A stretch of 64,000 nucleotides of DNA from an uncultured Pseudomonadota bacterium (GTDB lineage: Bacteria > Pseudomonadota > Gammaproteobacteria > Burkholderiales > JALYOK01): assembly GCA_963714525.1 (NCBI GenBank), contig CAVQPB010000021.1, positions 16,149 to 80,148 of the forward strand, given 5' to 3'. Below are positions 9,756-36,997 of the stretch, one piece after another (within the stretch, counting starts at the first letter, position 1; each line of letters begins with the position of its first letter). A model generated the notes under the pieces. It was not told the origin of the DNA. It ran no database searches and was given only the letters and a program-made list of their open reading frames with translations. Made by a program: the position numbers and the translations under genes.

Positions 9756-9791
9756 TCTTTGCGGACATGGTCGGGCAGGATTGATAGTCTT

Positions 9792-10066: not shown

Positions 10067-10092
10067 ATGATTTATCAGTAGTTGGTGTGCTC

Positions 10093-10866: not shown

Positions 10867-10920
10867 ACAAGCGTGACTTCAGAAACGTAAATTCGTAACC
10901 AAAAAATTTAGATCAACACC

Positions 10921-11072
10921 GTCATTCCCGCGCAGGCGGGAATCCAGGGTCTTCAAACAAACGTCACTGGGTCCCCGCTTGCAGCGCGCGTTCGGACTTG
11001 CAAGTCCGAACCGTTCCGCAGGCGGCTTGTGTCCAAGCCGAATTCCCTGCTACACCCTTCGCGGGAATGACG
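10921..11072. repeat. Repeat family B copy 1 (GTCATTCCCGCG...CGCGGGAATGAC type REP/MITE-like element)
   Basis: Terminal inverted arms are CGTCATTCCCGCGCAGG and CCTTCGCGGGAATGACG. The left end contains ATTCCC-N8-GGGAAT. An internal hairpin reads GTTCGGACTTGCAAGTCCGAAC. The element abuts the porin stop codon. Confidence 0.7.
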
Positions 11073-11073
11073 A

Positions 11074-12513: not shown

Positions 12514-12638
12514 GATGCCTCTTCCTCTGGTAGATAAATATTCTGCTGCGATTCTTATTCCTAGCAAGCTTCGCCAGCGACCGCGCCCATCTTGCCTGCT
12601 GGCAATGCCATGCCTGACAGTCGCTCTGGTATTGCCTC

Positions 12639-15512: not shown

Positions 15513-15575
15513 CGATCTGCCCCTGGGTTGATCGAGCCTCGGCGCGGATTGGCGCCGAGGTTACTGCAATGCTTG

Positions 15576-16688: not shown

Positions 16689-16946
16689 CTTGCATCCTCC
16701 AAACGGATAAAAATAAACGTAACGCGCGGTAAACGCTTTCAGGCTACTTGAAGTTGTTGTAAAGCGCAAAATATACCTGCCTCGGAAGGCAATACTGGTG
16801 CGCATCTCCGGGCAGGCATCGCTGTGAAGCAATATCCATGTGGCTCTTGGCGATGCACCCCACACATTATTCGATAGTAAAAATTACTAAGCTTAGTCGC
16901 GACGCGGTTGATCTATGTTTACGAAAGCTTACCTGACAGTTTATTT

Positions 16947-18365
16947 TCACGCCAGCAGATCGAGTCGTTTCACTTCGTCCCAAGTAAGATCCAGACAGCG
17001 GCGTATCAGAGCGATCATGGTATCGATCTCGGCTTTGCTGATGATGAGCGGCGGCGCGATAATCATGCGGTCGCCGACGGCGCGCATGATCACGCCTTCC
17101 TTGAAACAGTAGCCGCGGCATATCATGCCGACTTCCGCTGCCGGATCGAAACCGATTTTCTTCGCTTTATCCTTCGCCAGCACCAGCCCCGCCATCATGC
17201 CGCAAGTCTCGGTCACGCCGACGATGGGGTGGTCCGCCAAGCTGTGGAATTTCTTTGCTAAGTAAGGCGCCGTTTCTTTGGCGACTTTGTCGATGATCTT
17301 TTCAGCTTTGAACACGCGGATATTCTCAAGCGCGACGGCGCAGGCCACCGGATGACCCGAATAGGTATAGCCGTGATTAAACTCGCCGCCTTTTTCGATC
17401 AACACATCGGCCACTCGGTCGCTGATGATGGCGCCGCCCAGGGGAATATAGCCAGAGGTAACGGCTTTGGCGAAGGTAATGAAGTCCGGTTTAGTGCCGA
17501 AATACTCACAGCCAAACCAGCGGCCCAGGCGGCCGAAGCCGCAGATCACTTCATCGGAAATCAGCAGCAAACCATACTTATCGCAGATGCGTTGAATCTC
17601 CGGCCAGTAAGTCTTAGGCGGAATGATGACGCCGCCGGCGCCCTGTACCGGTTCGCCGATGAAGGCGGCGGCCTTGTCTGCGCCGACCTCGAGGATTTTT
17701 TCTTCCAGCCAGCCGGCGGCCTTAATGCCGAATTCTTCCGCCGATAGATCGCCGCCTAGCCCATAGTAATAAGGTTGCTCGATGTGAACGATGCCGGGAA
17801 TCGGCAACCCGCCCTGGGCGTGCATGCCGGACATGCCGCCGAGCGATGCGCCCGCCATGGTGCTGCCATGGTAGCCGTTGTTACGGCCGATAATCACACT
17901 GCGCTGCGGTTGACCTTGTAGTTCCCAGTAACGCCGCACCATGCGGACGATGGTATCGTTTGCTTCCGAACCCGAATTGGCGAACGACACATGCTTCATG
18001 TGGCGCGGCGCGATGTCGGCCAGGGCCGTAGCCAACTCCGTGGCCGGAATATTGGTCGTCTGAAAAAAGCTGTTGTAGAACGGCAAGGTAGTGAGTTGCT
18101 GGTAGGCGGCGTCGGCCAATTCCTGGCGGCCATAGCCGAGATTCACATTCCACAGCCCCGACATGCCGTCGATGATCTTGTTGCCTTCGGAATCCCAAAC
18201 ATAGATGCCTTCACCCCGCACCATGACGCGCGAGCCCTTCGCCGCCAGGGTTTTGAAATCGGTGAAGGGATGCAGGTAATGGGCGGCGTCCTGCGCCTGT
18301 ATCGCCTTGGTGTCGTAACGTTGCGCGCGCTCCGACGCGCGTCTCATTTCAAATATTGCACTCAT
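16947..18365 (-). CDS. class-III aminotransferase, putrescine--pyruvate (SpuC-like)
   Basis: 472 aa. HYLHPFTDFKTLAAKGSRVMVRGEGIYVWDSEGNKIIDGMSGLWNVNLGYGR closely resembles the SpuC/omega-transaminase N-terminus. Confidence 0.85.
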   Translation of the reverse strand: MSAIFEMRRASERAQRYDTKAIQAQDAAHYLHPFTDFKTLAAKGSRVMVRGEGIYVWDSEGNKIIDGMSGLWNVNLGYGRQELADAAYQQLTTLPFYNSFFQTTNIPATELATALADIAPRHMKHVSFANSGSEANDTIVRMVRRYWELQGQPQRSVIIGRNNGYHGSTMAGASLGGMSGMHAQGGLPIPGIVHIEQPYYYGLGGDLSAEEFGIKAAGWLEEKILEVGADKAAAFIGEPVQGAGGVIIPPKTYWPEIQRICDKYGLLLISDEVICGFGRLGRWFGCEYFGTKPDFITFAKAVTSGYIPLGGAIISDRVADVLIEKGGEFNHGYTYSGHPVACAVALENIRVFKAEKIIDKVAKETAPYLAKKFHSLADHPIVGVTETCGMMAGLVLAKDKAKKIGFDPAAEVGMICRGYCFKEGVIMRAVGDRMIIAPPLIISKAEIDTMIALIRRCLDLTWDEVKRLDLLA

Positions 18366-18379
18366 GATTCCAAATCCTT

Positions 18380-18481
18380 ATTCCGTCTCCAAATCAAAAA
18401 GGACGCGAAGGCGAGCCGCAGACAGTGCTGTAACACGGCAAGGCGAAGCCGACAAAGTAATTTTTGATTTGGAAACGGAAT
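18380..18481. repeat. Repeat family A copy 2
   Basis: Arms are ATTCCGTCTCCAAATCAAAAA and TTTTTGATTTGGAAACGGAAT. The core matches 1543-1644. The element fills the gap between the GS-like gene stop (18481-18483) and the SD (TCCTT, 18375-18379) of the aminotransferase gene. Confidence 0.8.
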
Positions 18482-19848
18482 TAAACATGCAGCAGCAGAT
18501 GTTCCCGCTCCCACGGGGAAATGACTTTCATAAACTCGGCGTATTCCTCTTCCTTCACGGCGGCGTAGAGCGTGACGAAGCGCTTGCCCATTATGTCGTG
18601 CAACGCCGTGGCGTCACGCATTTCCGTCAGCGCTTCATGCAGCCCGCGCGGAAGCTGGAAGTCGGACTCATAGGCGCTGCCTTTATATTCCGGCAGCGGC
18701 TCGATCTTATTGGTCAGGCCTAAATAACCGCAGGCCAAGGTCGCCGCGATCGCGACGTACGGATTGGCGTCGACGCCGACCACGCGGTTTTCCACCCGCC
18801 GCGCTTCCGGTTCGGAATCCGGTACACGGATGCCGACGGTGCGGTTGTCGCGGCCCCACTGGATATTGATTGGCGCCGCGCCGTATTTGACGATGCGCCG
18901 ATAGGAATTGACGTAGGGCGCGAAGAAAATAGTCGCCGCCGGCAGATATTTTTGCAGCCCGCCGATGAAATAGTGAAAACTTTGCGACGGGGTGCCGTCT
19001 TCATTGCTGAATAGATTGCGTTTGGTTTTCGGATCGATAATGCTTTGATGAATGTGCATGGCCGAGCCCGGCTCATCCGCCATGGGCTTGGCCATGAAGG
19101 TTGCGTACATGTCGTGGCGCATCGCTGCCTCGCGCACCGTGCGCTTGAAATAAAACACGCGGTCGGCGAGCTTCAGCGGATCGCCGTGCAAGAAATTGAT
19201 TTCCATCTGACCCGCGCCGACTTCGTGGATCAGCGTATCGACGTCGAGTCCTTGTGCCTCGCAATAATCGTACACGTCTTCGAATAGCGGATCGAATTCG
19301 TTCACCGCGTCGATGCTGTAAGCCTGACGGCTGGTTTCCGCGCGGCCGCTACGGCCAATCGGCGGCTTCAGCGGTATGTCGGGATCGGTATTGCGCGCCG
19401 TCAAATAAAACTCCAGTTCCGGCGCGATGATGGGCGACCAGCCTTTTGCGTGGTACATACCCAGCACGCGGCGCAATACGGAACGCGGTGCGAAATCCAC
19501 CATCTCGCCGTCGAAAAAGAAACAATCGTGTATCACCTGTGCCGTTGGATCCACCGCCCAAGGGACGATGCAAACGGTTTCCGGATCCGGCTTCAGTATC
19601 ATATCGGGATCGTAATCGGTCATGATCGCGTCGACTTCATCCGAATTGGGATAGTTTCCCGTCACGGTCTGCATCATCACCGCCTGCGGCAGACGCAGGC
19701 CCTTATCCTGGCCGAATTTCGCGCGCGGCAGAATCTTGCCGCGGGACACGCCGGTCAAATCCGAGACGAGACATTCGACTTCCGTGACCCTGCGTTCATC
19801 GAGCCAGCGTTCCATGTCGCCGGGAGAAAAATTTTCGCGTTGAATCAT
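18481..19848 (-). CDS. glutamine synthetase family protein (gamma-glutamylpolyamine synthetase, PuuA/SpuB-like)
   Basis: ATG at 19848 with AGGAAG upstream. The GS catalytic-domain pattern is present (FHGDPLKLADR..., MHIHQSI, NRTVGIRVP). The maximal ORF extends to 19881. Confidence 0.85.
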   Translation of the reverse strand: MIQRENFSPGDMERWLDERRVTEVECLVSDLTGVSRGKILPRAKFGQDKGLRLPQAVMMQTVTGNYPNSDEVDAIMTDYDPDMILKPDPETVCIVPWAVDPTAQVIHDCFFFDGEMVDFAPRSVLRRVLGMYHAKGWSPIIAPELEFYLTARNTDPDIPLKPPIGRSGRAETSRQAYSIDAVNEFDPLFEDVYDYCEAQGLDVDTLIHEVGAGQMEINFLHGDPLKLADRVFYFKRTVREAAMRHDMYATFMAKPMADEPGSAMHIHQSIIDPKTKRNLFSNEDGTPSQSFHYFIGGLQKYLPAATIFFAPYVNSYRRIVKYGAAPINIQWGRDNRTVGIRVPDSEPEARRVENRVVGVDANPYVAIAATLACGYLGLTNKIEPLPEYKGSAYESDFQLPRGLHEALTEMRDATALHDIMGKRFVTLYAAVKEEEYAEFMKVISPWEREHLLLHV

Positions 19849-24460: not shown

Positions 24461-25243
24461 ATGACAAATCCCACACGCTTACCCGTCGTGTTTTTCGGAC
24501 ACGGCAGCCCGATGAATACGTTGGAACGCAATGACTACACCGAAACTTGGCGTGCGTTCGGCGCGTCGATCGCCAAACCGCGCGCAGTGTTGATGATATC
24601 CGCCCACTGGTACACCCGTGGCACCCACGTCACCGCCATGGACACACCGGAAACGATACACGACTTCGGCGGATTCCCTCAGGCCCTGTTCGATTTTCAG
24701 TATCCTGCGCCGGGCGCGCCGGAGCTTGCTCAGCGAGTCGCGGACTTACTCGCGCCGCTGCCGGTGGGGCTCGATCGCGAGTGGGGGCTCGATCACGGCG
24801 CGTGGTCGGTGCTCGCCCACGTTTATCCCGATGCCGATGTGCCGGTAGTGCAGTTAAGCATCGATCGCACGCAGCCGGCGCAGTTTCATTACGATCTCGG
24901 CAAACGTCTGGCGCCATTGCGCGATGAGGGCGTGTTAATCGTCGGCAGCGGCAACGTGGTGCACAACCTGGGCATCATGAATTGGCGCGAGCAAACCGTG
25001 GCTTACGATTGGGCGGTGCGGTTCAACGATTTGGTTAAGCGCTCACTTGCGTCAGGGGATCACGCCCCGCTCATCGGCTACGACCGGCTCGGCAACGACG
25101 CAGAGCTTTCGATTAATTCGGCGGAACACTATTTGCCGTTGCTTTACATCGTTGGGTTGCAAAACGCCGACGATAAATTGACTATGCTTACCGATGGTAT
25201 ATTCGGTGGCTCGATTAGTATGTTGTCGATTTCGATTGGTTAA
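24461..25243 (+). CDS. ygiD: 4,5-DOPA dioxygenase extradiol (class III extradiol dioxygenase, YgiD-like)
   Basis: 260 aa. LPVVFFGHGSPMN...ISAHW...DHGAWSVL...GSGNVVHNL matches YgiD/LigB-type dioxygenases. Confidence 0.85.
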   Translation: MTNPTRLPVVFFGHGSPMNTLERNDYTETWRAFGASIAKPRAVLMISAHWYTRGTHVTAMDTPETIHDFGGFPQALFDFQYPAPGAPELAQRVADLLAPLPVGLDREWGLDHGAWSVLAHVYPDADVPVVQLSIDRTQPAQFHYDLGKRLAPLRDEGVLIVGSGNVVHNLGIMNWREQTVAYDWAVRFNDLVKRSLASGDHAPLIGYDRLGNDAELSINSAEHYLPLLYIVGLQNADDKLTMLTDGIFGGSISMLSISIG

Positions 25244-25267
25244 GCTAGGCCCTTCAACGTCCATAAG

Positions 25268-25298
25268 GCACCCAGCTTAGCGGGTAGGTGCTTTTTTT
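25268..25298 (+). terminator. putative Rho-independent terminator after ygiD
   Basis: GCACC...GGTGC stem (alternative inner pairing is possible) followed by a T7 run at 25292-25298. Confidence 0.45.
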
Positions 25299-25362
25299 GG
25301 TTTGTCAATCGTTACCGAAAGACCCTGCCGCCTCTCGGTATATAGCAAATATTGCGGGTCGG

Positions 25363-25719
25363 CTACGCAGCCGCACGCAGCGGTGCGCGAATGATAATTT
25401 CGTCATAAGGGGCCATGAGCTTATTCGCATCGTCACGCGTGATCAACCCACGTTCTTCGAGCTCGGCAACGTCCGTATGTACTCGTTTGTAGTCGCGTTC
25501 TAGTGCGAGCGCTAAGCTTCGAATCGACAAACCCGGGTGTTCGGCCACAAAGCGCAATAGCTCGATGCGCTTCTCCGAGAGCAAGGAAGCGAGCTCGGCC
25601 ATCGAATCGAAACCGAGAATTGGTTCGATCGCTCCGCCGCGCGCTGCGGTATTGGCAATCTTTTTGAACTTGCGCAAAGCCTTCGCGGGAGAAAAAACTT
25701 CGGCGGTGATTCTTTTCAT
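25363..25719 (-). CDS. winged-HTH DNA-binding protein, putative antitoxin (TumA-like)
   Basis: ATG at 25719. LLSEKRIELLRFVAEHPGLSIRSLALALERDYKRVHTDVAELEERGLI is a MarR/ArsR-type wHTH. It sits 35 nt downstream of the putative toxin gene. Confidence 0.6.
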   Translation of the reverse strand: MKRITAEVFSPAKALRKFKKIANTAARGGAIEPILGFDSMAELASLLSEKRIELLRFVAEHPGLSIRSLALALERDYKRVHTDVAELEERGLITRDDANKLMAPYDEIIIRAPLRAAA

Positions 25720-25754
25720 GAAATTAGCCTTTCCGTGTAGTTCGCTCGGTCCGA

Positions 25755-26060
25755 CTATTTGCCCCAATCCCATCCACGTCGAGCGCACTCTTGTTGAAAC
25801 TCATCGAGCAGCGCATCAACCGTCGTGAACTCGTAGGGCTCTTCGACATTTTCGAGATGGCGATGCGCGGCCTTTCCGGTATGCGTGTCATAGAGAACCA
25901 GACACTCGTCCGCTCGGCCGAAATACAATCGGAAATGAAGGCCGTGTGGTCGATGATTGTCCGGGCGTGGTATTCGATAAATCTGCATCTCCACGATCAA
26001 GGCGCCCTGGCGCGCTTTATAGGAAAAGAGCTGCTCGGCCTTCGACATATGGCGTATCAT
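25755..26060 (-). CDS. DUF6516/TumE-like putative toxin
   Basis: About 100 aa. IYRIPRPDNHRPHGLHFRLYFGRADECLVLYDTHTGKAAHRHLENVEEPYEF resembles the TumE-family pattern. This is from memory and was not searched. Confidence 0.5.
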   Translation of the reverse strand: MIRHMSKAEQLFSYKARQGALIVEMQIYRIPRPDNHRPHGLHFRLYFGRADECLVLYDTHTGKAAHRHLENVEEPYEFTTVDALLDEFQQECARRGWDWGK

Positions 26061-26250
26061 GCCATAGTTGGGCTAGTACATCAAGCCTACCTGGACGGTC
26101 AATGATAATTGCGCCGATCCCTCACATTTATCGGCTCAAACTCCCAACCGGCAATGCTGTGAGGGTTACTGTTGCGCTATTGAATTATTTTGACGTTCCG
26201 CTAAGAACCGCGCCCCACTTGCCTCGTGGCGAAGCAAGCCCTGTGAAGTT

Positions 26251-26585
26251 GTCAATACCGGGCTGATTCTGCAAGAACTGCTGCAAGGGTTTTTCGGTCC
26301 TCGGGCACGCAAGGAGATCATCAAGCGATATAGTGCTCTGCCTGTCTTGCCCCTGATCGGAAGGACTACATTGATTCTGTGGAGCTTCGCAACCAATGTT
26401 GTCGTGCCCGCGTACAGATCGCGACCACCGACGCATTAATTTTACGACTCTGCATAAGCCATAAACTGGTGCTGCTGACGACCGCTCAAGACTTTGCGCA
26501 TGTGGCGCCGAATTGCCGTTGCAAATGTGCAACGATTAACCTAAGCGAACGTACGATCGCACTTACGATAGCCGAATTCATATGA
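26251..26585 (+). pseudogene. decayed PIN-domain (VapC-like) toxin gene, N-terminally truncated and frameshifted
   Basis: One frame reads LILQELLQGFFGPRARKEIIKRYSALPVLPL. A second frame continues ...VQIATTDALILRLCISHKLVLLTTAQDFAHVA, which is the PIN C-terminal motif D-x-x-I-A...L-x-T-x-x-x-D-F. No intact ORF spans both. Confidence 0.4.
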
Positions 26586-26607
26586 CTTGCGGAATCGGCC
26601 ACCAGTT

Positions 26608-26629
26608 GACATCGCATTGTGCGGCGCAA
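26608..26629 (+). repeat. 22-nt direct repeat, left copy (GACATCGCATTGTGCGGCGCAA)
   Basis: 20/22 identical and in the same orientation as 33519-33540. Together they bracket the CHASE2/CHAT segment. Confidence 0.5.
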
Positions 26630-27440
26630 GAGAGCAGTTTCGGGGTGGAGCCGCTATTGACAACGAAACGAATAATTTTCTCGAGTGGTCTCGGCTCAGC
26701 AAGCAAAAATCGGGGCACCGCCATTTGCGAAGAGTCGCTACCGGGCAACGCATTTTGCTGAGCTTCAGCCATCAACGAAATCGCACGCGACGCTTATGGG
26801 CAATTTGACAACATGTGTAGTTGGCGACAGATTGCCTCGCAGTTCCCTCGAAAACGCGTGCGAGCATCTGATCTCGCCTTGACATAGTTTTCCAGTTTGA
26901 GGAACTCGTGAATTCGAACTCGCGTTCCTCGTTGATCGTTGATACGGCGAATTTAACTATGTATTCCATGGATGGTCCCCGCGATAGAACCGGGAACTGT
27001 GTATTCGACGTATCACGCCCGAACGCGCCGCGTGCCGCGAAAGTGGGTCTGGTTTACCGGTAAAGCGTGAAGCAGCTGATGCCAATCGGATGGCGAACCT
27101 GGATGAATTCACCCGCTAGCGGTCATGGTAACGCCTCGTCACGCAGCTAGAGCAATGACACCAATTTAGTGGGCCTTGCTCCCAAGAACCACTCGGTGTT
27201 CTTTTGTGTCAAAATTAACAAAACCCTTCTTGTCAATTTGCGATGCATGGGGAGCTACAGATCCTGGAGGAGAGGTAGGCGTTGTTTGAAGAAGATGACG
27301 TTATGTGTAGAAAGCCCACTGTGCAAGCGACGGTGCACCTGACATCACCGTCGTCAGGCTGCCGGACGTACAGATCGTCTCGCATGCAAAGCGTTCGAGT
27401 TTCGCGGCGGGATTGAAGCGCGCGTCACACAGGATAATGC

Positions 27441-29057
27441 GTGCGGACTAAGACTCGAACTGAATCACCACAGTCGTGGTTGAAGAATGCACTGTCGTCT
27501 TGGATCACGGGGCTAGTGTTTGGTTTGATTGTCGCCGTGGTTTTAGTTTTCGTGACGGTCACGAATCTCTCTCGTATAGAAGACCGCGGAACTGATCTGG
27601 GAAATGTACTATTGGTGAAATTGAGGGAAGCTGCGTTTAAAGTCACTCTGGACTCTGAGCTTCCAAGAAAAGCAGAGATGGAGATCGGCGCAAAAAAGCA
27701 GAGCGAGGCCGATCTAGTTCAGGGCTATGTCTTTATAGACATTGATCCCGGCGGTATTCGCTCGGCACAGCATCTGGTCAAGACGGACATCGACATAGCC
27801 TCCACAACGGCAGGGGCAAGTGCAAGTGAGGACGCTTGCGCCGCCTTGGTATCTGCACTTGGTACCAAATACCGCTTACCACCCGCAAGATCGGATGGCC
27901 AAAGCGGCAACGTTGAACTGAACTGCAGTCAGCATCGTTCACCTAATCGTTACTTGCTTGCTGAGATTGTTTCTGAGCTCACGCAACGTAAGCCAAGGCT
28001 CATAGTCCTGGATTTCGTTCTATACGATGACCCAGGGATTTTCTCAGAGCAAGAAAACAAGGCGCTTAGAGGTGCGCTTGAGCAATCCAAAGTTCCTGTA
28101 TTTTTTGTTGCGCCGTATTTGTATCAGCGGAGCGAAGGCGATATTCATTGGTTGACTCGCGATTCCGTCGGCCTTTTTCTGCCTCATAAGCGCTCGGCCC
28201 ACGTGCATGCGCTCCCGCATTTCCCCGTGCCTGGTGAGCCAGTGCGCGCTTTCCCAGAGTGCTATCGAGTAACACCGGGACCAGGCGAAGGCGGGACGAA
28301 GGCGATTTCAAGCCTACCTCATGCCGTAGCTACAACAGTGCGAACTGGCGAAGTGGCTCTCGGGAGTGTCTGCCCAGACTTCCCTCAACGAACACGTGGC
28401 AACGCGAAGATCGTCACGAACGAGAGAATTATCTATACATTGCCCGGTAGCATCGAACATGTCGACGGCAAATCTGAGACTGATTTCGCGCTAGCGGCCA
28501 AATACAATCGCCTCTACGTGCGCTGCCTCGCGGAGAATCTCTGGAAATCAGAAGCGCTTTGCTCCCAAGAGCAAACGTTTCACGGGAAAGTCGTCGTGCT
28601 CGGAGTCTCGAATCCGACGCGAAAGGATATTCTCCAGACGCCGTTAGGACAAATGCCGGGGGCTTTGGTAACGCTAAATGCGATTAGAAGCTACGTTCTG
28701 TACCCAAACCTTGAGGAGAGAAGCATAGCGCTAAAGTTAGTTGAGAAGACGTCAGTTACTCTTGCTTGTTCGCTCGTATGGCTAGGGTACTGGCTTCTCT
28801 ACTACCGCCGCGTTGCGATGAGCAAGAGTCGCGGAATAGCAGCCTGGTGCACGACAATGATCAGTTTCACGGTTTGCGGCGTAGCCGTTTGCATGCTGGC
28901 GGTTTGGCTTAGCTTACAGCTGCATTCGCCGCCCAAATTGGACATACTGCTTCCCATTCTCGCCATCGGGCTTGAAGTCTACGGGGAGGGCGCAAGATGG
29001 GTAATAAATCACACCCATGAGTTCGTGGACGGGATCCTTCGAAAGGTGTTCAAATGA
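27441..29057 (+). CDS. CHASE2 domain-containing membrane protein without output domain
   Basis: GTG start 6 nt after AGGA. There is one N-terminal TM helix and a hydrophilic region of about 395 aa. That region carries CHASE2-like motifs (YVFIDIDPGG, PRLIVLDFVLYDD, GKVVVLGVSNPTRKDILQTPLGQMPGALVTLNAI). Three C-terminal TM helices follow, with only 24 residues after them. Confidence 0.8.
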   Translation: MRTKTRTESPQSWLKNALSSWITGLVFGLIVAVVLVFVTVTNLSRIEDRGTDLGNVLLVKLREAAFKVTLDSELPRKAEMEIGAKKQSEADLVQGYVFIDIDPGGIRSAQHLVKTDIDIASTTAGASASEDACAALVSALGTKYRLPPARSDGQSGNVELNCSQHRSPNRYLLAEIVSELTQRKPRLIVLDFVLYDDPGIFSEQENKALRGALEQSKVPVFFVAPYLYQRSEGDIHWLTRDSVGLFLPHKRSAHVHALPHFPVPGEPVRAFPECYRVTPGPGEGGTKAISSLPHAVATTVRTGEVALGSVCPDFPQRTRGNAKIVTNERIIYTLPGSIEHVDGKSETDFALAAKYNRLYVRCLAENLWKSEALCSQEQTFHGKVVVLGVSNPTRKDILQTPLGQMPGALVTLNAIRSYVLYPNLEERSIALKLVEKTSVTLACSLVWLGYWLLYYRRVAMSKSRGIAAWCTTMISFTVCGVAVCMLAVWLSLQLHSPPKLDILLPILAIGLEVYGEGARWVINHTHEFVDGILRKVFK

Positions 29058-30019
29058 TCCGCAGCATACTTAGCTTTCTGCACTTGGTATGTGTTTTAAC
29101 AGTTATGTCGCTGACTACACCGAGTCGCGCAGACACCGATTCACCCCAATGCGAGAGAAATCCCTTGAGCGTTCGATACTCGATCGAGCGAATTCTTCCG
29201 CCAAAGGGCAAAGTTATTATTCGTGCGATCAAAGGAGGCAATGAACGGATCACCGGCATAGGTGGGTGCATCGGCCCTGGCGAAACATTGATTTTGCCGG
29301 ACGATGTGGCATTGGTGGATGTTTTCGATGGCAGCAACGTCCTGCAGTGCAGTCGCGGCAATTGCCGGCTGGAGGCCAAGGATAGCTTCGGTGAAGCTGT
29401 CGCCGGTGCATTACGGTTTATAGCTCGCACGTACGCAGCATTGAGTCGTCCACCTACCCAGGATTTGCCCAAGGTTCCAGCCATTCGGGGCGAGGAGGAG
29501 GCAGTCGAGGCCAACGTACTAAGGCCTGTTGTCGCCCTTTCAGTGCCGGTCGCCCAAAAGATATCGCTTGCCACCGAGAATCTCGTCGTTGGGTGGCGGG
29601 ACGGCAAAGGGCCCGTTTGGGAATGTCGCGCTACCCGTATATCATCGATGCGGCGTTCAGCAGGATCCACTGCGTTGGGCACTGTAACAAGCGACTCGGA
29701 TCAATGGTGCGTGCTGAAGCTTGTCGGTATTGATGCGGGCGATACTATAGAACTCGAACTCTCCGATGGGTCGGGATCGACCGTGGTGTGGAAAATCACT
29801 GTCGTATCCTCGTCTGATGTACCTCTGCCGCCGTGGGCGGAGACCGGCCCCGTACTCCAGGGTCCGCCAGACGAAACAGCATGGGCGCTATGGTTGCTGC
29901 AGTCAAAACCCGAGTGGCGGCTTTACGTTTTGGCGGAGCTCTATCGATTGCAGCAACATCAGTGGCTTGCTGGCCACGTGCTACGGCGCATCCTGAGCGA
30001 GAGCGAATTAGCGCGATAA
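29054..30019 (+). CDS. secreted hypothetical protein (321 aa), translationally coupled to the CHASE2 gene
   Basis: The ATG overlaps the upstream stop (ATGA at 29054-29057). The signal peptide is MIRSILSFLHLVCVLTVMSLTTPSRA/DT. The mature part has six Cys. The N-terminal segment KGKVIIRAIKGG...PGETLILPDDVALVDVFDGSNVL is weakly FecR-like. No confident family was recognised. Confidence 0.7.
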   Translation: MIRSILSFLHLVCVLTVMSLTTPSRADTDSPQCERNPLSVRYSIERILPPKGKVIIRAIKGGNERITGIGGCIGPGETLILPDDVALVDVFDGSNVLQCSRGNCRLEAKDSFGEAVAGALRFIARTYAALSRPPTQDLPKVPAIRGEEEAVEANVLRPVVALSVPVAQKISLATENLVVGWRDGKGPVWECRATRISSMRRSAGSTALGTVTSDSDQWCVLKLVGIDAGDTIELELSDGSGSTVVWKITVVSSSDVPLPPWAETGPVLQGPPDETAWALWLLQSKPEWRLYVLAELYRLQQHQWLAGHVLRRILSESELAR

Positions 30020-30053
30020 CCGCGCACCAGTTATCCATTGCGAAATCTCTCAT

Positions 30054-33000
30054 TTACCGCCCATATAGAACGAACGGTGCCCAGAAGTAAGGGTGCCGAT
30101 CCACCGGATCTGATGAGTCCAAGAATTCTCTCTTGGTTTCAGCAAGAGCCTGAGCTACCGCGTGGCGTGGATTTGTTCTTTCAAGCTCTGGCAGCCGTGC
30201 GAGAAAAACTGTAACAAAGCGCGCAGACCGCTTGTCGTCCACTGGCCAGAGTGTCGCTACCGTGTTGGCATTGCCCGCTACGTAGAGCGCATAAGCAAGT
30301 CCGATCAATCCTTCTCCGCCAACGGTGCGACCGCGAGCTGTATCGCAGGCCGAGAGAATTGTCAGGTAGCTTCTAAGGGTCAAGTTCGCCCACTCGCCGG
30401 TCGTCACATAACCGTCCCTTGCTGGAGTGTCATCTTCAAATCTCAATACAAGCCCTGACCTTGAGGGCGCACACGGATCGAAATAGCCGTGAGCAGAGAA
30501 CAGCACGTGACGGTAGTTGGCGAGGTCACCATTACTCGAGATCGTCCGCAGCTTTGTTTCGGTAGCGTCATTTTGTGTTATCGCCTCGTGGTCTTGCAGT
30601 TTGAACAACGCCTTAGCGTCCGAAATCTCTTTGGCCGAATAATTCAGATTCTTCCATGGCTCTTTGGTCTTCGCGCATTCATTCGTGCGATACGTGGGAG
30701 GAGTACCTTTGTAGTTAGGATCCCCGAAGGCCAATAGGGGCCGCAGCGCTTGGGCTGATTCGCCCTCAGCTTGCTGATTCTGGATGCGCTGTTGTACGAG
30801 TTTTAGGACTGAGAACGAGTGAATCAGACTTAGATCGAAGCTGGCTATGAGCGGCTGGCCCTCGACCTTTAGAACATCAAACGCCAGCAACCCAAGCGGG
30901 CCGTCAGGCGAGATGATGATTCGCCTCTTGCCGACGAGCTTGGCTTTCAGTGGTTCGATTAACTTGTTGCTCAGAAAGACTATAAGCGGGTCGCCCGCAT
31001 TCTTACCTTCGGGGGTACTCGATTCAAGAATCCGAGCCCCTGGGGGCACGCAATCCCCTCCGACTGGACTGCCACCCGCATCGCTGAACGAACCGATACT
31101 CTTCATGGGCCTCAGGTTGCCCCACGTGTCATTTGTTCGAACCCGCGAAAGAGCGCGTTGTGGCTTAAGGTCCTCTTGGGGACAAGGCTTTCGTTCGGGA
31201 ACCGAGCGCCAGCGGCGTACGCCGTTCTCCTCCCAGGAGGCCAACGGTGAAGCTTTCCCTGCTGGTTGGCCAATCCACTTGCGCAGAGCTTCAACGGAGT
31301 CGCCCAGTCCTGGTATCGAACCCAGATCGAACCAGCCCACGTTGCTCTCGTTATCTAGAGTCAACGCAAAGACTCGTTGCCCGTCAACGACCATGTAGCT
31401 AACGAAGAGTTCGTCGGGCGAAAGCAGTTGAGGGGCATCGGGAACCGCCGCAAATTCAATCTCAGTTACTTTGGCGAAACGCGGATGCTCTTTCTTCAGT
31501 TTCGCACGCAAATCGCTTTCCTCCCGATCGAGACGCTTGAGGATATTGCGCGCTTCTTGATCTTCGGACTTCGCAAGGCGAACCTCTATCGCGGTGATTT
31601 GGTCGTTGAGATCCTGGAGACGTTTGGCGTCCGTATCGGGTATGATTCCAGAACGTAGAGTTTCGGATTCGGCCATTTGCTCTAAAAGAGTGCGTGCCTT
31701 TGTCATCTCTAAGATCTCGAAGGCCTCATTAGGTTGACCAGCCTGGTTGAGCGCAAAGGCAAAGGATTGGTATTGGGACATGTAGCGCTCAAATTGTTGT
31801 CGCTGCATGCTGCGGGATTCGGATCCAGCATGGACTCGAACCTGCTCAACGACATCAACGAACCGCGCCCACATTTTTAAAGCGTCAGAGTGTTTTCCAG
31901 ATAAGTACATTGTCTCTGCAAGTGCAGCTAGATGTTTCGCCGAGTTTGGATGGCGCCCGGGAAAATGCTGAGAGTGCACCTTCAATATGTCTTCAAACAA
32001 CGGAAGCGCCTCAGAGATCATGTTCTGTTCGCGCAGCGCGATTGCGTAGCTAAACGCTACGCTTAGGTGGTGCTTATATAACTCTGGGCGACTCGGGCCA
32101 TAAACCTCGTATGCTCTCCTAAAAGATGCCAATGCCTCTTTATCCTTGCCTTCGATTCGATAGAATTCTCCCAGAATGGAATCTAGCGAGGATTGGTTTA
32201 TTGCATTCAACTCTTGTTCTACTGCCGCATTGGGTGCAGACGCTGCCGCATCCTTCTCCAAAGCTTTCCACGCAACAATAAGCCTATCCACAATGGGCCG
32301 TGCCTTGTCTATTTGCTCCGTAGCGAGGAGTATGGCCAGATAGTAAAGCAACGCCGTAGGATCCTCTCTAGCAGACTGAATTTCATTGATAGCCCCTTCC
32401 TCACCAACGTTATTTCCTTCCCCAGATTCAGGATTCGGCACGACTAGCGCTTCGTCGGGAACCGGCCAATGTTCTTGCATGAACCGTCTTGCATCCTCTA
32501 TCTGCTTAAACTGCAGCAAGGCGTTCAGGTACAGGATGCGGGCCGTATACTGCAACATTGCGAAGTTCTGATCCATCTTTGACGTCGACCAAAATTCTTC
32601 GAACAGCCGTAGGCCCTTGGTCGATCCCCCGACCGTTACTAATTCATTGGCGTAAAGCAATAGCGCCTGCATCGTATTGACATGATCGGGCCCGCAGCTT
32701 TTCTTAACCTCACCGTAGTAACCCGCCACCTTATCCAGATAAGCCGACAACTCGCCATTTGACCGCAGCTTTTCCAACTCTTTTTGAACTTCGAGTGCTG
32801 CGGTACTTGCAGCGCGGAGTTCTTGGGCCTGTTTCTTTAGCTGTTCCGATCGCTGTTCGAGTTGTCGGAGAAGTTCGGCCGAGTCGCCCGGGGTCGTCTG
32901 AGGTATGGGTGCTTGGCGCACGTGCGGTTCTTGCAGGCCCGAAGCGCATGTCAGAGGCACGGGCAGGCTCTGGGATCGAGCGAGCACGGAACACGTTAGG

Positions 33001-33110
33001 ATCAGTCCGCAGCAAAACAGATAGGTTAGTTGCCGAGTCGGCTGGCAGCGCCACAGTCTAAGACTATGGCGGAAAGCCTTAATCACCGCAGTCCAAGAAT
33101 TACGCCCCAT
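30054..33110 (-). CDS. TPR repeat- and CHAT domain-containing caspase-like protease with N-terminal signal/anchor (1018 aa)
   Basis: ATG at 33110 is preceded by AAGGAGG. The N-terminus is ...RLWRCQPTRQLTYLFCCGLILTCSVLA/RS, followed by a coiled coil and TPR-like repeats. The C-terminal CHAT domain has His (FSAHGYF, codon 30489-30491) and Cys (LSACDTA, codon 30345-30347). Confidence 0.9.
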   Translation of the reverse strand: MGRNSWTAVIKAFRHSLRLWRCQPTRQLTYLFCCGLILTCSVLARSQSLPVPLTCASGLQEPHVRQAPIPQTTPGDSAELLRQLEQRSEQLKKQAQELRAASTAALEVQKELEKLRSNGELSAYLDKVAGYYGEVKKSCGPDHVNTMQALLLYANELVTVGGSTKGLRLFEEFWSTSKMDQNFAMLQYTARILYLNALLQFKQIEDARRFMQEHWPVPDEALVVPNPESGEGNNVGEEGAINEIQSAREDPTALLYYLAILLATEQIDKARPIVDRLIVAWKALEKDAAASAPNAAVEQELNAINQSSLDSILGEFYRIEGKDKEALASFRRAYEVYGPSRPELYKHHLSVAFSYAIALREQNMISEALPLFEDILKVHSQHFPGRHPNSAKHLAALAETMYLSGKHSDALKMWARFVDVVEQVRVHAGSESRSMQRQQFERYMSQYQSFAFALNQAGQPNEAFEILEMTKARTLLEQMAESETLRSGIIPDTDAKRLQDLNDQITAIEVRLAKSEDQEARNILKRLDREESDLRAKLKKEHPRFAKVTEIEFAAVPDAPQLLSPDELFVSYMVVDGQRVFALTLDNESNVGWFDLGSIPGLGDSVEALRKWIGQPAGKASPLASWEENGVRRWRSVPERKPCPQEDLKPQRALSRVRTNDTWGNLRPMKSIGSFSDAGGSPVGGDCVPPGARILESSTPEGKNAGDPLIVFLSNKLIEPLKAKLVGKRRIIISPDGPLGLLAFDVLKVEGQPLIASFDLSLIHSFSVLKLVQQRIQNQQAEGESAQALRPLLAFGDPNYKGTPPTYRTNECAKTKEPWKNLNYSAKEISDAKALFKLQDHEAITQNDATETKLRTISSNGDLANYRHVLFSAHGYFDPCAPSRSGLVLRFEDDTPARDGYVTTGEWANLTLRSYLTILSACDTARGRTVGGEGLIGLAYALYVAGNANTVATLWPVDDKRSARFVTVFLARLPELERTNPRHAVAQALAETKREFLDSSDPVDRHPYFWAPFVLYGR

Positions 33111-33180
33111 TTCGAGACCTCCTTTGCACCAAAGAAGGGGGTACGACTTAAATAGTGCCCCGAGTGCGATCATCGTACGC

Positions 33181-33199
33181 CGACACCCCGGGAGTGTCG
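33181..33199. promoter_or_regulatory. 19-bp near-perfect palindrome upstream of the CHAT gene (possible operator)
   Basis: In CGACACCCCGGGAGTGTCG, 8 of 9 symmetric pairs are complementary. It lies 71-89 nt upstream of the ATG at 33110. Confidence 0.25.
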
Positions 33200-33518
33200 A
33201 GCCTGCCTTGCCTTGAGGGCCACTTGCCACATACCAGGGTCTGCGAACAACAGTTGGTCATGAACAGTCTAGCGGGAGGGAGCCGATCTTTGCGCTTCAT
33301 AATGCCAGGTCTGTGTTAGTCGGTGTTTTTGGCCATACTTTCTCGCTGCACGACGGCTTTCAGCGGTGCAGTGTTTGAAAGCCACTCGTACGGACAGGGT
33401 CGAAAATCGGGCAGCATGTTTTTTTACACTAGTTCGCGTTTCAGGAAGACGTGAAGTGTGCGCTTTGCGATTGTGAGCCGAAGCGCCGCGACCTTACGTC
33501 AGCTATGTGAATGGTGCC

Positions 33519-33619: not shown

Positions 33620-34081
33620 CTAGCGAATGCTAAACCCTAGATCGCGCAGTTCGGCGGCGAGAAGTTTTCGTTTGCTGGGAATATCGGCAGGGCGAGATTT
33701 GCGGTAGCGCTTTGCTTCTTCTGCGCTGTAGGGAACAAAATTCTCTGGCAACGATGCGCCGGCAAACCGGGTAAGGATATAGTTGGTCACGTCGGCCGCG
33801 CGGGTATCGGGCATGCCGGCGCTGAGCAGGCCGGGAATCTGCATGAGATACGCGCGGCCCGCTTCGGTGCGCAGAAAATAGCCGACCTGATCTTTTAGCG
33901 CTGGGATGCCTTTATGTTCGAGGCCGCGTCCATCTTGCGCGTGGCATCCGGAGCAATGCAGTATGTAGTCGATGCGGCCTTGATTGGAATACGGTTGGTC
34001 GCCGGCGATAGCAATACTGCTTACGCAAACGAGAATTGCCGAGAACTTCATGCAGAATCCCCGGCGGCTTAATTTTTTCAT
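33620..34081 (-). CDS. monohaem c-type cytochrome (probable electron acceptor of the amine dehydrogenase)
   Basis: Single CSGCH haem-binding motif, signal peptide and distal Met context YLMQIPG. The start may be the internal Met at 34051. Confidence 0.8.
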   Translation of the reverse strand: MKKLSRRGFCMKFSAILVCVSSIAIAGDQPYSNQGRIDYILHCSGCHAQDGRGLEHKGIPALKDQVGYFLRTEAGRAYLMQIPGLLSAGMPDTRAADVTNYILTRFAGASLPENFVPYSAEEAKRYRKSRPADIPSKRKLLAAELRDLGFSIR

Positions 34082-34138
34082 GGGTTGGTGTTGCTTCAGG
34101 TAGATTCCGCGCGCATGCGGAATCTACCTACCACCGAC

Positions 34139-34663
34139 TTAGCCCGCAGCAGTGCCGACGATGGCCGACACGGTGCAGTGATACATGGTTTGAGTATTGG
34201 CCATGCACCAGTTGATATCGTTGTGCACACCCATGCGGTAGCCGGGGCGCTCCCGTTCGTTGAAGTTACAAAGGCAGCGTCCGCACGCGACCTTGCCGCA
34301 GCAATCGTTGTAGCTCACCAGATAGGCTTTGCCGTCCTTGGGATTTTGGCAGGTGCCGACCCAGGTGACTTTCGAAACTTCCGAGCCCGGCGGACATTGA
34401 CTGGTTGTACCGCCGCAGCAGTTACAAATAAAACCATCCAGCGCGCAGTTACGCCAATAATCGCAGGCCGCGGGATCGTCGCTGGTCGTCATCGCCGCCT
34501 GGGCTGTGCCGCCGGAACGGTCGAATGGCAGCATGGGCAACGCGGCGCCGGCGACCATCCATTTGCCGATGCGGGCGAGTGCGCTGCGCCGGCTGGTGAG
34601 TTGCGCCGTTTCGCGCACCCGGCGTTCGGCGAATTTGTCCATCCAGTCCTGAAGGTATTTCAT
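34139..34663 (-). CDS. mauA: TTQ-dependent amine dehydrogenase light (small) subunit
   Basis: Long Tat-like leader (SRRSALARIGKW). The Cys-rich core CDYWRNCALDGFICNCCGG...VTWVGTC...NDCCGK...INWCMA...YHCT aligns by eye to the methylamine dehydrogenase beta subunit, including both TTQ Trp contexts. Confidence 0.9.
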   Translation of the reverse strand: MKYLQDWMDKFAERRVRETAQLTSRRSALARIGKWMVAGAALPMLPFDRSGGTAQAAMTTSDDPAACDYWRNCALDGFICNCCGGTTSQCPPGSEVSKVTWVGTCQNPKDGKAYLVSYNDCCGKVACGRCLCNFNERERPGYRMGVHNDINWCMANTQTMYHCTVSAIVGTAAG

Positions 34664-34689
34664 GGTATTCCTCCGTCCCTCGATTTCGA

Positions 34690-35301
34690 TTAAGCGGCTT
34701 TACTCGAATAACTTGAATTACTGCCGGTCAAAAAATCCTGTACCGAACCTACGCCGAGTTCCTTGGCGTTAAACAAACTTTCCAACTGCTCGCGATTGTT
34801 GATCATGCCCTTGGCGCGGATCGCGCCCGTCTCGTCGATCAGCACGGCGTAGGGCAAACGGCTGACGCGGTAGGTCATGCCCAGATCCGACGATAACACA
34901 TAGGGAAACTCCATCAGCTTGGCGTCGCGATAAAAGGCCAGATGTTGCGTCGCCTCACCGTCGCTGGCCAGGATCACTTGCAGCCATTCGCGTTCGGCTT
35001 GAGAAGCGGATTTCAGAATGGGCAATAGTTTTTTACACACGGGACACGTGGGCGAGAGGAAGAACAACAACTGACTCGACGCACGCTGTCCGCCGATGGC
35101 GATGACCGTGCCGTTCAGCGCTGGCAATTCAAACTTCGGCGCAGCCTCGCCGAGCTTGGGGCCGGCGTCCGTGATGAGCGCCCCCATGGGTGCGACCCTC
35201 TCGTACAGGATGCCTACCTGCCGCGCCAGCGCCCATAACGCAACGATGACGCCGAGCAGCAACACCCATAAGATCGCGTTCGAAATCATTAGGCTGGTCA
35301 C
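34690..35301 (-). CDS. mauD: methylamine dehydrogenase accessory protein MauD (thioredoxin-like)
   Basis: N-terminal TM helix and a thioredoxin fold with a CPVC motif (LSPTCPVCKKLLP). It overlaps mauE by 4 nt. Confidence 0.85.
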   Translation of the reverse strand: MTSLMISNAILWVLLLGVIVALWALARQVGILYERVAPMGALITDAGPKLGEAAPKFELPALNGTVIAIGGQRASSQLLFFLSPTCPVCKKLLPILKSASQAEREWLQVILASDGEATQHLAFYRDAKLMEFPYVLSSDLGMTYRVSRLPYAVLIDETGAIRAKGMINNREQLESLFNAKELGVGSVQDFLTGSNSSYSSKAA

Positions 35302-35864
35302 GACGCAACTCCCGAGGGTTTGCCCTTAAGTTGAGCGATGCGGCCGAACTGGCGCAGCAACTCGTCAAACGTTAAATAGCTTCCGTAGAGCGCGAGCACG
35401 CCGACAATCAACGTAACGGCATCTAGCCATTCATAGGAACGGCCTACGCTGGGTGCGGACATGGCTAGGGCAATACACGCTAACAAGCCATTGCGCACTA
35501 CCAAGCCCCAAGACAACAAATGCACGTCTCCGCCGCAACCGCAATCGATTTGATGCCGACCGCGCACTAGGTTGATGGCGATAGCGATGCCGTAGACGGT
35601 CATTAATGCAGCAAAAACAACTAATCCTAGGGGACGCGTTATCGGGACAAGAACGCCGACCCCGATTGCTGCTTCAACATAGGGCAAGCTCCGCGCGATC
35701 GGCATTACGCCGGCACTTGGCAAAAGTTGGTAGGCATCGAGTGCGCCGGCGAACACGTCTGGCTCGGAGAATTTGTGCCAAGCAGCGGAAAACAAAATCA
35801 ACGCGACGCATCCCGCGACGGCGCTAGCGGCGACAGGGTCCGTCAGGAACGGATACCACTGCAT
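35298..35864 (-). CDS. mauE: methylamine utilisation membrane protein MauE
   Basis: 188-aa polytopic membrane protein in the canonical position between the heavy-chain gene and mauD. Its ATG overlaps the mauB stop by 1 nt. Confidence 0.8.
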   Translation of the reverse strand: MQWYPFLTDPVAASAVAGCVALILFSAAWHKFSEPDVFAGALDAYQLLPSAGVMPIARSLPYVEAAIGVGVLVPITRPLGLVVFAALMTVYGIAIAINLVRGRHQIDCGCGGDVHLLSWGLVVRNGLLACIALAMSAPSVGRSYEWLDAVTLIVGVLALYGSYLTFDELLRQFGRIAQLKGKPSGVAS

Positions 35865-36997
35865 TATTCCGCCTCAAGCTGACCGGGAAACTCGCCAACT
35901 TGGGTCAAGCGGACTTTGGCTTTTGGTGAAATCTTATCCCAAACGACTACGGATGCTTTCATCGGGTCGATCGCGTACAGCCGTTTGCCGTCGGCGGATG
36001 GCTCCAACGCAATCGCCGAATTGCCGGGCAGGCGAGCGACCCGTTTCTTCGTTTGAGTGTCGAACGCCCAAATCTCGTTCGCAGGATTTTTATGACTACC
36101 TTCCACGCCGCCTGTATGCATCGTGACGTAAAGCCGATTGGTGCCCGGATGCACGGCGAGAGGCTGGTAGCCGCCCGGCCGCCAGGCTTTCTTCTGGTCG
36201 GCTTTCGATAGTAGCGGCCAAGTCCCTTCCAAGACCGCCGTGTCGCCGCCAACATTGACAGTCGCGATATTGCCTTTGAAGCTGACAAAGTGATAACGAT
36301 CGCCGTCTTGTTCGCCTTGCATAAACCAGGCATCTTCATCGGGATCGAAAAACTTACCGCTCGACGTGCGCGATGCTTCCTTGCCGCTGTCGTCTATCGT
36401 CACAGTGCTGACGTTGCCTTCGCCGCACAGGGAAGCAAAACGTTTTGAGTTGGACTGGGCAGGATAGATTGCCCAACAACCCGGCATGGAAATATCGCCG
36501 ACGTCTTTCTTCGCCTGCATATCGACCACCGTGACCGATGTTGCGGGAGTGGAGTTCTGTATGAACAGCCAGCGGCCGTCGGCGGATAAACGGATCAAGC
36601 CTTCGTAATTCAGCGCCATGGCGCGCTTGTCCGAAATAGGAATCTCGTACTTAAACGACAAATTATCCGCATCCCAGACTTCGACCACATCGACGCGATC
36701 GCCGCGCTGCCCGCGGGACAAATAGCCGGTAGCGACTATGATTTCGCGCTTGTTATTGCTCAGGATGAATTGGCCCGTGAAACCGGTGCCTATCATCCCA
36801 AGGTAATTGCCGCTTTCGGCGTCGACGACGTGAAGTTTGCCGTCGGATATATGATTAATCGCTATGTCGGAAATATAAATCCGATGCTTAGCGGTGATGG
36901 CGGGAAGCGTGCCGACCGTATCGTTGGGAAGGTCCGCCCAGACCGCCGTGGAGAGGGCTAACAAGCTGGTTACGACGATACCGCAATTGACATTCAT
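35864..36997 (-). CDS. mauB: TTQ-dependent amine dehydrogenase heavy (large) subunit, beta-propeller
   Basis: 377 aa with a signal peptide. RIYISD..., GDRVDVVEVWDADNL, AWRPGGYQPLAVH and RLYVTMH resemble the MADH/AADH alpha subunit. Confidence 0.9.
   Translation of the reverse strand: MNVNCGIVVTSLLALSTAVWADLPNDTVGTLPAITAKHRIYISDIAINHISDGKLHVVDAESGNYLGMIGTGFTGQFILSNNKREIIVATGYLSRGQRGDRVDVVEVWDADNLSFKYEIPISDKRAMALNYEGLIRLSADGRWLFIQNSTPATSVTVVDMQAKKDVGDISMPGCWAIYPAQSNSKRFASLCGEGNVSTVTIDDSGKEASRTSSGKFFDPDEDAWFMQGEQDGDRYHFVSFKGNIATVNVGGDTAVLEGTWPLLSKADQKKAWRPGGYQPLAVHPGTNRLYVTMHTGGVEGSHKNPANEIWAFDTQTKKRVARLPGNSAIALEPSADGKRLYAIDPMKASVVVWDKISPKAKVRLTQVGEFPGQLEAE

Follow-up and report, generated by a model that had tools for sequence, protein, structure and literature searches.

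CHASE2 is a widespread bacterial sensor domain whose ligand and mechanism are not known, and the bacterial homologs of caspases have mostly been discussed as cytoplasmic effectors of cell death or defense. Here we analyze a locus combining the two in a 64,000-nucleotide stretch of contig CAVQPB010000021.1 (GenBank assembly GCA_963714525.1, positions 16,149 to 80,148) from an uncultured Pseudomonadota bacterium, which we refer to in its entirety as the window. In it a gene for a CHASE2 membrane protein is followed by an open reading frame (ORF), here called X, and then by a convergent gene for a protein combining TPR repeats with the caspase-fold CHAT protease domain. The original prediction, made from the letters of the window, saw in X a secreted partner of the CHASE2/CHAT pair; this general idea is supported by conserved synteny.

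Relationship to described CHASE2 and caspase systems

In the type III-E CRISPR Craspase, a TPR-CHAT protease (Csx29) cuts a small partner encoded next to it (Csx30) at a specific site. The Craspase is cytoplasmic and RNA-guided, whereas the parts of the present module are all predicted to be exported and lie outside any CRISPR context, and the cutting of X is a hypothesis. A direct tie between CHASE2 and a caspase fold is seen in the metacaspase-CHASE2 fusion of Trichodesmium erythraeum, the caspase domain of which is predicted to be cytoplasmic (PMC3501461, PMC2853523), and in the EACC2-caspase-CHASE2 proteins (PMC8195603); the pentapeptide, WD40 or TPR repeats that protease partners elsewhere also carry are a further likeness. 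However, those are single polypeptides, while in the present case a separate secreted protease would lie on the same side of the membrane as the CHASE2 domain, and the CHASE2 protein has no output domain. Moreover, X, which is not mentioned in the papers on the fusions, is always interposed. Hence, the triad is new among the CHASE2-caspase systems in its wholly extracytoplasmic predicted layout.

Two further systems resemble the pairing of CHASE2 with X. In the Burkholderia "BiofilmReg" system the genes for a periplasmic LysM-FecR protein and a CHASE2 histidine kinase are co-transcribed (PMC5192318), i.e., a signal-peptide-bearing periplasmic protein encoded together with a CHASE2 membrane protein. 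It differs in its reversed gene order, its PAS and kinase outputs, its response regulator and the lack of a protease; further, X shows no detectable similarity to FecR or LysM. The second is a cluster of DUF928, CHASE2 and WD40 genes in Nostoc punctiforme (PMC5587647), so that the earlier placing of DUF928 genes near CHASE2 in cyanobacteria was correct as to position. In both cases a small protein of unassigned role is found beside CHASE2 and WD40 genes, the counterpart in our sample being a locus with the order WD40-caspase, CHASE2 and X (L018). DUF928 may therefore be a positional analog of X; yet the named relatives of X are proteobacterial and none of 53 family members scanned gives a DUF928 profile match. 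A literature search recovered no description of a module combining CHASE2, a CHAT or C14 protease and a third gene. Likewise, PADLOC-DB 2.0 yielded no matches for X or CHASE2, and the proteases only matched, weakly, the generic "caspase" and BovA models.

A constant CHASE2-X pair with a variable secreted protease

On balance, we favor the reading that X serves an output-less CHASE2 protein as its dedicated partner in the periplasm, linking it to a secreted caspase-fold protease and possibly acting as a cleavable switch. By a similarly narrow preference, we see CHASE2 and X as the constant core of an envelope module in which the protease, either Peptidase_C14 or TPR-CHAT, is the variable third component.

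Our context sample comprises the window and 15 further independent loci. In all 14 with DNA upstream of X (the window, L001, L004, L005, L007, L008, L010, L011, L012, L015, L016, L018, L019 and L020), the immediate upstream gene on the same strand encodes a CHASE2 homolog, as established by tblastn and Pfam searches, and a caspase-fold protease adjoins X in every core-family locus with enough downstream DNA. Thus, conservation of X beside these genes, on which the original prediction had hinged, is borne out. Hydropathy and sequence indicate that the stand-alone CHASE2 protein of the window starts with one transmembrane (TM) helix (~aa 22-40), which is followed by the CHASE2 domain in the periplasm and by a C-terminal set of three TM helices; the ~24 amino acids (aa) that remain as a cytoplasmic tail include no output domain. 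The same architecture recurs in its counterparts: those from complete genes are 493-552 aa long, with four TM helices and no domain past the last of these.

The two genes are also tightly coupled. X is the ORF 29054..30019 (+), of 321 aa with an ATG start, which in the tetranucleotide ATGA (29054-29057) is shared with the TGA stop (29055-29057) of the CHASE2 ORF; the previously reported coordinates, length and overlap were exact on re-reading. This coupling recurs: among 12 aligned pairs the same 4-nucleotide (nt) overlap is found in four, and the genes are 3-7 nt apart in three more. X and CHASE2 diverge in step, with the identity matrices of the two across 12 loci being strongly correlated (Mantel r = 0.90, p = 2e-4); for instance, in L001, the closest relative, all three genes have diverged from those of the window to a similar extent, with identities of 41% for CHASE2, 38% for X and 40% for the CHAT protein. 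Finally, in one 822-aa protein from a Logan metagenome contig (P0015), CHASE2 and X are found in that order in a single polypeptide, with a segment resembling the X signal peptide kept after the last CHASE2 TM helix and tail as a fifth hydrophobic segment. If inserted as a fifth TM helix, this segment would place X in the periplasm. P0015 could be a genuine Rosetta-stone fusion or result from a frameshift, and we weigh it lightly. The constancy of the CHASE2-X core relative to the variable protease, together with the coupling, co-divergence and fusion, is what points to X binding CHASE2 and linking it to the protease.

The protease, by contrast, varies in type and orientation. A TPR-CHAT or CHAT protein is encoded convergently in the window, L001 and L018, and a Peptidase_C14 protein convergently in L004, from Variovorax; Peptidase_C14 is encoded on the same strand as X in L005, L007-L012, L015, L016, L019 and L020. 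Hence, most relatives of X are paired with Peptidase_C14 rather than CHAT, and in L010 the X and C14 genes themselves overlap by 4 nt. The C14 partners carry pentapeptide repeats, TPR repeats or no recognizable extension. The His/Cys dyad is intact in all the proteases, as AGHG and DACR in C14 and as SAHG and SACD in CHAT; the latter motifs were located in the window protein by alignment with two further CHAT proteins from the module. Every protease partner has a clear signal peptide at its N-terminus, such as MNRLLRISLLFVMCCANVFG/QA in the CHAT protein of L018, ...LLVLALFACASTWA/QR in the C14 protein of L016 and MRTFAMLFLLTTHVVFAGA/QP in that of L004. The window CHAT protein has a long n-region followed by LTYLFCCGLILTCSVLA, which could be a signal peptide or a signal anchor; its start at 33110 is that of the gene call in the identical metagenome contigs L002 and L003. 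CHASE2 is usually described as an input domain that relays to an output in the cytoplasm; here the CHASE2 protein lacks an output and both X and the proteases are predicted to be secreted, so that the CHASE2 domain has only periplasmic partners. Thus, CHASE2, X and the protease are all predicted to act on the periplasmic side.

A few loci depart from the simple three-gene pattern. In L018 (3024-11132) the gene for a secreted protein of 1125 aa with WD40 repeats and a Peptidase_C14 domain overlaps the CHASE2 start by 4 nt; the order is thus WD40-C14, CHASE2, X and a convergent secreted CHAT protein, i.e., two caspase-fold proteases with one CHASE2-X pair. The neighbors in this locus (BACON, PEGA, CarboxypepD_reg and DUF3738) are not obviously proteobacterial. 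In L020 (2217-6225) X is followed by tandem Peptidase_C14 genes for proteins of 473 aa and 837 aa, the latter with pentapeptide repeats. L025 (1444-6254) encodes a remote X-like protein (P0063) of 284 aa without Cys, in which only the C-terminal Trp-rich region is conserved. It lies beside a divergent CHASE2 gene and is succeeded, with a 4-nt overlap, by a gene for a secreted TPR-only protein of 513 aa, in which no CHAT or other protease domain was detected; beyond it lies a convergent gene, truncated where the contig stops, whose product has a C-terminal GGSHLC motif. L025 may represent a degenerated module or another variant of it. The closest homolog of the window CHAT domain in the plasmid collection (40% identity; L021, 5940-8981) is from the 2.48-Mb replicon of Variovorax paradoxus VAI-C. 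It has no CHASE2 or X neighbor and lies near integrase and helix-turn-helix genes; therefore, such CHAT proteases also exist outside the module.

The X family

A word-indexed protein search recovered X itself and a single relative, P0002, with 38% identity (E 2.7e-62); two profile searches of this type, limited to 8000 candidates, likewise recovered few relatives. With a profile of X and P0002, an exhaustive HMMER scan across 1.84 billion representative proteins retrieved 64 proteins at E<=1e-3, 42 of them at E<=1e-10, with the nearest non-trivial relatives at E 3e-29 or better. Nearly all are 300-330 aa long and align end to end. The conservation counts in this work are from a 43-sequence alignment (A2) of these proteins. 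The window protein shows all the hallmarks of the family: similarity over ~300 aa, W181, W277 and W280, the motifs VP(R)PxW, AWAxWL and (P)EWRL, a signal peptide, the four conserved Cys, CHASE2 upstream and a secreted caspase-fold protease alongside.

X itself has no match in Pfam at E<=10 or in NCBIfam at E<=1. No plausible Pfam family was recovered with the 43 members (E<=1) or with 10 remote members (E<=0.1); at the former threshold the 43 gave 10 scattered families, each matched by a single member, the best at E 0.012. In every case seen the database name of a relative is "hypothetical protein" or "Uncharacterized protein", and no solved structure with a sequence relation to X was found. 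By these sequence criteria, X founds a previously unnamed protein family. Accordingly, the earlier label "orphan" holds as far as Pfam, NCBIfam and informative names are concerned, but not in the sense of a lone protein, given the family of 64 relatives.

The family is rare in sequenced isolates. Its clusters are tiny and mostly metagenomic; a first scan of the species-representative genomes gave no match for X and a second gave only two loci, the members present in such genomes being limited to Variovorax ureilyticus KACC 18899 and one Pseudomonadota metagenome-assembled genome.

Two weak resemblances had been proposed for X and neither is supported. The first was a FecR-like N-terminus: Pfam FecR is absent from X and P0002 at E<=10 and from the 43 members at E<=1, and hhalign comparison of the 43-sequence profile with Escherichia coli FecR gives a probability of 0.14%. 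With no profile match, sequence comparison rejects membership of FecR (PF04773). The top 50 Foldseek matches of the whole X model include only generic Ig-like ones and neither FecR nor PupR chains. Typical FecR proteins combine an N-terminal anti-sigma domain with a TM helix, or are fused to LysM, and are encoded beside a sigma factor or TonB receptor. X departs from this architecture in having only a cleavable signal peptide, and its neighbors include no sigma factor or TonB-dependent receptor gene. The second was a DUF928-like tail. At E<=1 for the 43 members and E<=0.1 for the 10 remote ones, no match to DUF928 (PF06051) was obtained, and with no Pfam match among these 53 proteins a DUF928 identity of the C-terminus is not supported. 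In tblastn searches against plasmids the window CHASE2 protein retrieved nothing while the CHAT domain gave matches; of three cyanobacterial plasmid regions surrounding such CHAT genes, none had a DUF928 gene.

Predicted architecture and export of X

The N-terminus of X, MIRSILSFLHLVCVLTVMSLTTPSRA/DTD, is organized into the n-, h- and c-regions of a Sec signal peptide, and 40 of the 43 members pass a crude signal-peptide test. X has seven Cys, six of them in the mature part (C33, C72, C98, C103, C191 and C219); C98 and C103 are extra in the window protein and absent from P0002, and exactly four mature-part Cys in conserved positions are found in 38 of the 43. Thus, X is probably exported, its four conserved Cys being consistent with two disulfides, and the earlier view of X as a periplasmic disulfide-bonded protein extends to the family as a whole.

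An AlphaFold2 (AF2) model computed from the 43-sequence alignment has a mean predicted local distance difference test score (pLDDT) of 85 and a predicted template modeling score (pTM) of 0.82; an earlier model from two sequences was unusable (pLDDT 41). The predicted fold comprises a small beta domain, a helix, a low-confidence linker, an immunoglobulin (Ig)-like sandwich and a C-terminal Trp-rich helical bundle (Table 1). Foldseek searches of PDB and BFVD found no whole-chain structural analog, only generic Ig-like, FN3-like and PKD-like domains with a TM-score of ~0.2 of the query. The predicted sandwich is thus comparable to the Ig-like and FN3-like domains of bacterial surface proteins (Big, PKD and RbmA); however, sequence identity to these is at most 22%, and mostly ~10-15%, and the matches leave out the N-terminal domain, the linker and the Trp-rich bundle. 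At the sequence level, a bacterial cadherin/Big_9 repeat protein matches the X profile ten times over aa 233-279.

The linker contains a conserved motif, the most conspicuous non-structural conservation in the family, with the Arg at position 145 present in 39 of the 43 members, G146 in 34, Thr at -3 in 32 and Pro at -6 in 30. It is followed by a spacer of variable length rich in Gly, Ser and acidic residues. Because orthocaspases cut after positively charged residues (PMC6426788), we regard this Arg-Gly linker, presumably exposed in the model, as a candidate site of recognition or cleavage by the protease.

Table 1. Features of the CHASE2-X-protease locus in the window and of the predicted protein X
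Feature	Residues of X	Window coordinates	Strand	Basis and remarks
CHASE2 membrane protein, 538 aa		27441..29057	+	Pfam CHASE2, E 3.3e-11, above the curated cut-off
Shine-Dalgarno-like AAGGTG		29043..29048	+	Read from the sequence; inside the end of the CHASE2 gene, 5 nt before the X ATG
Gene X		29054..30019	+	Predicted secreted 321-aa protein of an unnamed family
Sec-type signal peptide (predicted)	1-26	29054..29131	+	Sequence; predicted cut SRA/DT
Six-stranded beta domain (predicted)	42-100	29177..29353	+	AF2, pLDDT >90; this entry also takes in conserved C33 and the C-x-G-E motif (C72..G76-E77)
Helix (predicted)	117-130			AF2
Low-confidence linker	~131-165			AF2, pLDDT ~60 over aa 131-160
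Linker motif P139-x-x-x-x-x-R145-G146		29468..29491	+	Family consensus P-x-P-T-x-x-R-G
Seven-stranded Ig-like sandwich (predicted)	168-251	29555..29806	+	AF2; invariant W181, conserved C191 and C219
Trp-rich helical bundle (predicted)	260-315	29831..29998	+	AF2; Trp-rich region with invariant W277 and W280, near-invariant P257, P259, W288 and R289, VP(R)PxW and TAWAxWL..PEWRL
Invariant Trp	W181, W277, W280			43-sequence alignment
Conserved Cys	C33, C191, C219			41/43 each in the 43-sequence alignment
Cys just before G76				43/43 in the 43-sequence alignment
Near-invariant residues	G76, R145, Q168, P257, P259, W288, R289			43-sequence alignment
Family motifs VP(R)PxW and TAWAxWLW..GPEWRLQAL				43-sequence alignment
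TPR and CHAT protein, 1018 aa from the called start		30054..33110	- (convergent)	CHAT E 1e-50 plus TPR; open frame to 33230

Functional interpretation and its alternatives

Under the reading of X as the dedicated partner of CHASE2, X would bind the periplasmic CHASE2 domain, and its two beta domains and Trp-rich helical bundle might serve as surfaces for protein-protein interactions. It would make the protease respond to the state of CHASE2; the protease might dock via its TPR, pentapeptide or WD40 repeats and might recognize or cleave X at P-x-P-T-x-x-R|G, between Arg145 and Gly146. X would then be a cleavable switch or bait rather than a passive ligand-binding protein, and the output of the module would be periplasmic proteolysis instead of a cytoplasmic signal. 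If X does couple the two, it would offer a defined partner for CHASE2 as well as a candidate natural substrate and cleavage site for the orthocaspase and CHAT enzymes, with V. ureilyticus KACC 18899 as a cultured host for testing. A bolder and decidedly more tentative proposal is that the triad is a self-contained periplasmic caspase-fold system for sensing and execution, in which CHASE2 would serve as a membrane-anchored platform in the periplasm instead of passing a signal across the membrane, and X, a new domain combination lacking named relatives, would be the switch that arms or disarms the protease when cleaved at its conserved Arg-Gly linker. If true, this would amount to a bacterial "extracytoplasmic caspase cascade", possibly for envelope defense or programmed lysis, and would provide the first experimentally tractable partner for CHASE2.

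Several points weigh against X being such a partner and switch. Its binding to CHASE2 or to the protease is deduced solely from gene order, co-divergence and one fusion; of these, linkage alone can yield a Mantel correlation of the kind observed, and the fusion is from a single metagenomic contig, where it could reflect a frameshift at the overlapping stop and start. In the lineage of the window the protease gene is convergent and so is not co-transcribed with the other two. Signal peptides were judged by a crude heuristic, i.e., an h-region and an AxA-like site, rather than by SignalP. The cleavage-site idea draws on conservation and on low model confidence, and the Arg of the linker is missing in four of the 43 members; further, the CHAT proteases known so far are not uniformly Arg-specific.

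An alternative role for X, which we regard as unlikely, is that of a periplasmic inhibitor or immunity protein that silences the caspase-fold protease in the cell's own envelope until release or a signal. Ig-like or beta-barrel inhibitors such as chagasin, staphostatin and AprI are encoded beside secreted cysteine or metalloproteases, and the Ig-like domain predicted in X, the secretion of both X and the protease, and the same-strand protease gene right after X in 11 loci, with the 4-nt overlap in L010, would all fit this. However, it is CHASE2 and not the protease to which X is invariably linked, the order of CHASE2 and X being constant where the protease varies in type, orientation and copy number; the sole fusion is to CHASE2, and the remote L025 keeps CHASE2 while its neighboring TPR protein has no detectable protease domain. 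Moreover, C14 and CHAT enzymes alike would have to be targets of a single inhibitor family.

Comparably improbable is the possibility that X is a purely ligand-binding or accessory subunit of CHASE2, akin to the LysM-FecR protein, without direct contact with the protease, which would be regulated otherwise. The constancy, coupling and single fusion of the CHASE2-X pair would fit this proposal, and the co-transcription of a secreted protein with a CHASE2 sensor in Burkholderia provides a precedent (PMC5192318). Against this, the CHASE2 protein has no output domain, which leaves only the periplasmic protease to signal to; X shows no FecR similarity, and the strict co-occurrence of the secreted protease would be left unexplained. 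Even if X were merely accessory, it would still constitute a new protein family with a gene context pointing to its function.

Still less probable is a reversed flow of information, wherein the repeat-bearing protease is the sensor, X its substrate and the four-TM CHASE2 protein the effector, which might, for example, perturb the membrane, in the manner of Craspase-Csx30 or CalpL-CalpT transposed to the envelope. The TPR, pentapeptide or WD40 repeats of the proteases are typical of sensor arms, the linker of X has its conserved Arg-Gly, and the CHASE2 protein has no enzymatic output; in addition, some loci have defense-like neighbors, namely an Mrr_cat protein in L001 and TIR and patatin proteins in L004. 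Yet every other known architecture has CHASE2 as an input domain (PMC3501461, PMC8195603), neither X and CHASE2 nor the triad has a PADLOC match, and the other neighboring genes are unrelated between loci.

Lastly, the possibility that X is open by chance, or is the C-terminal part of CHASE2 split off by a frameshift, has a negligible probability and is already refuted by the conservation of the family: the moderately high GC content, the 210-aa antisense ORF overlapping X and the one relative fused to CHASE2 might be cited for it, but the protein is conserved with P0002 (E 2.7e-62) and across 64 relatives, is kept as a separate gene with its own signal peptide in 14 loci, and yields a confident AF2 model from the family alignment. 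Because the three-gene arrangement recurs around the 38%-identical homolog on another, unrelated contig, and because of the 64 representative proteins of the family, X is, judging from sequence comparison, a real gene and not a chance ORF.

Surroundings of the module

The genes flanking the module differ between loci, suggesting that it is self-contained. No Rfam-type RNA elements were found around it in the window, and scans for promoters and terminators near it gave results at or below the shuffle background. An antisense ORF of 210 aa (29050-29682, -) lies almost wholly inside X, with its last few bases reaching the terminal part of CHASE2; it is probably spurious, such open frames being common at this GC content.

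Just upstream of the module, the window has a pair of genes resembling a toxin-antitoxin system (25363-26060, -). A TumE-family toxin of 101 aa (25755-26060, -; Pfam TumE, E 1e-6) overlaps the gene for a 141-aa winged-helix protein (25363-25788, -; HVO_A0114/MarR_2), presumably a TumA-like antitoxin. The ~1.4 kb between this pair and the CHASE2 gene (26060-27441) holds only short unconserved ORFs and no Rfam match. The GC content of the region 25000-33500 is ~50-56%, as against ~55-61% in most of the flanks within 4-5 kb, and the module region may be a horizontally acquired islet.

Among the other loci, L004 (V. ureilyticus KACC 18899 contig00018, 98-18672) includes a 1397-aa patatin-like neighbor with about eight hydrophobic segments in a crude hydropathy scan, a transglutaminase-core protein, and a protein combining TIR (CAP12-PCTIR) and methyltransferase domains, while L001 has an Mrr_cat nuclease-like protein. 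These defense-like neighbors are suggestive, though not conserved across loci. Directly past the CHAT gene of the window is a cluster of the methylamine dehydrogenase (MADH) type (33620-36997, -), encoding a c-type cytochrome-like protein (CxxCH), the MADH light chain (34139-34663), a MauD-type thioredoxin-like protein, MauE and the MADH heavy chain.

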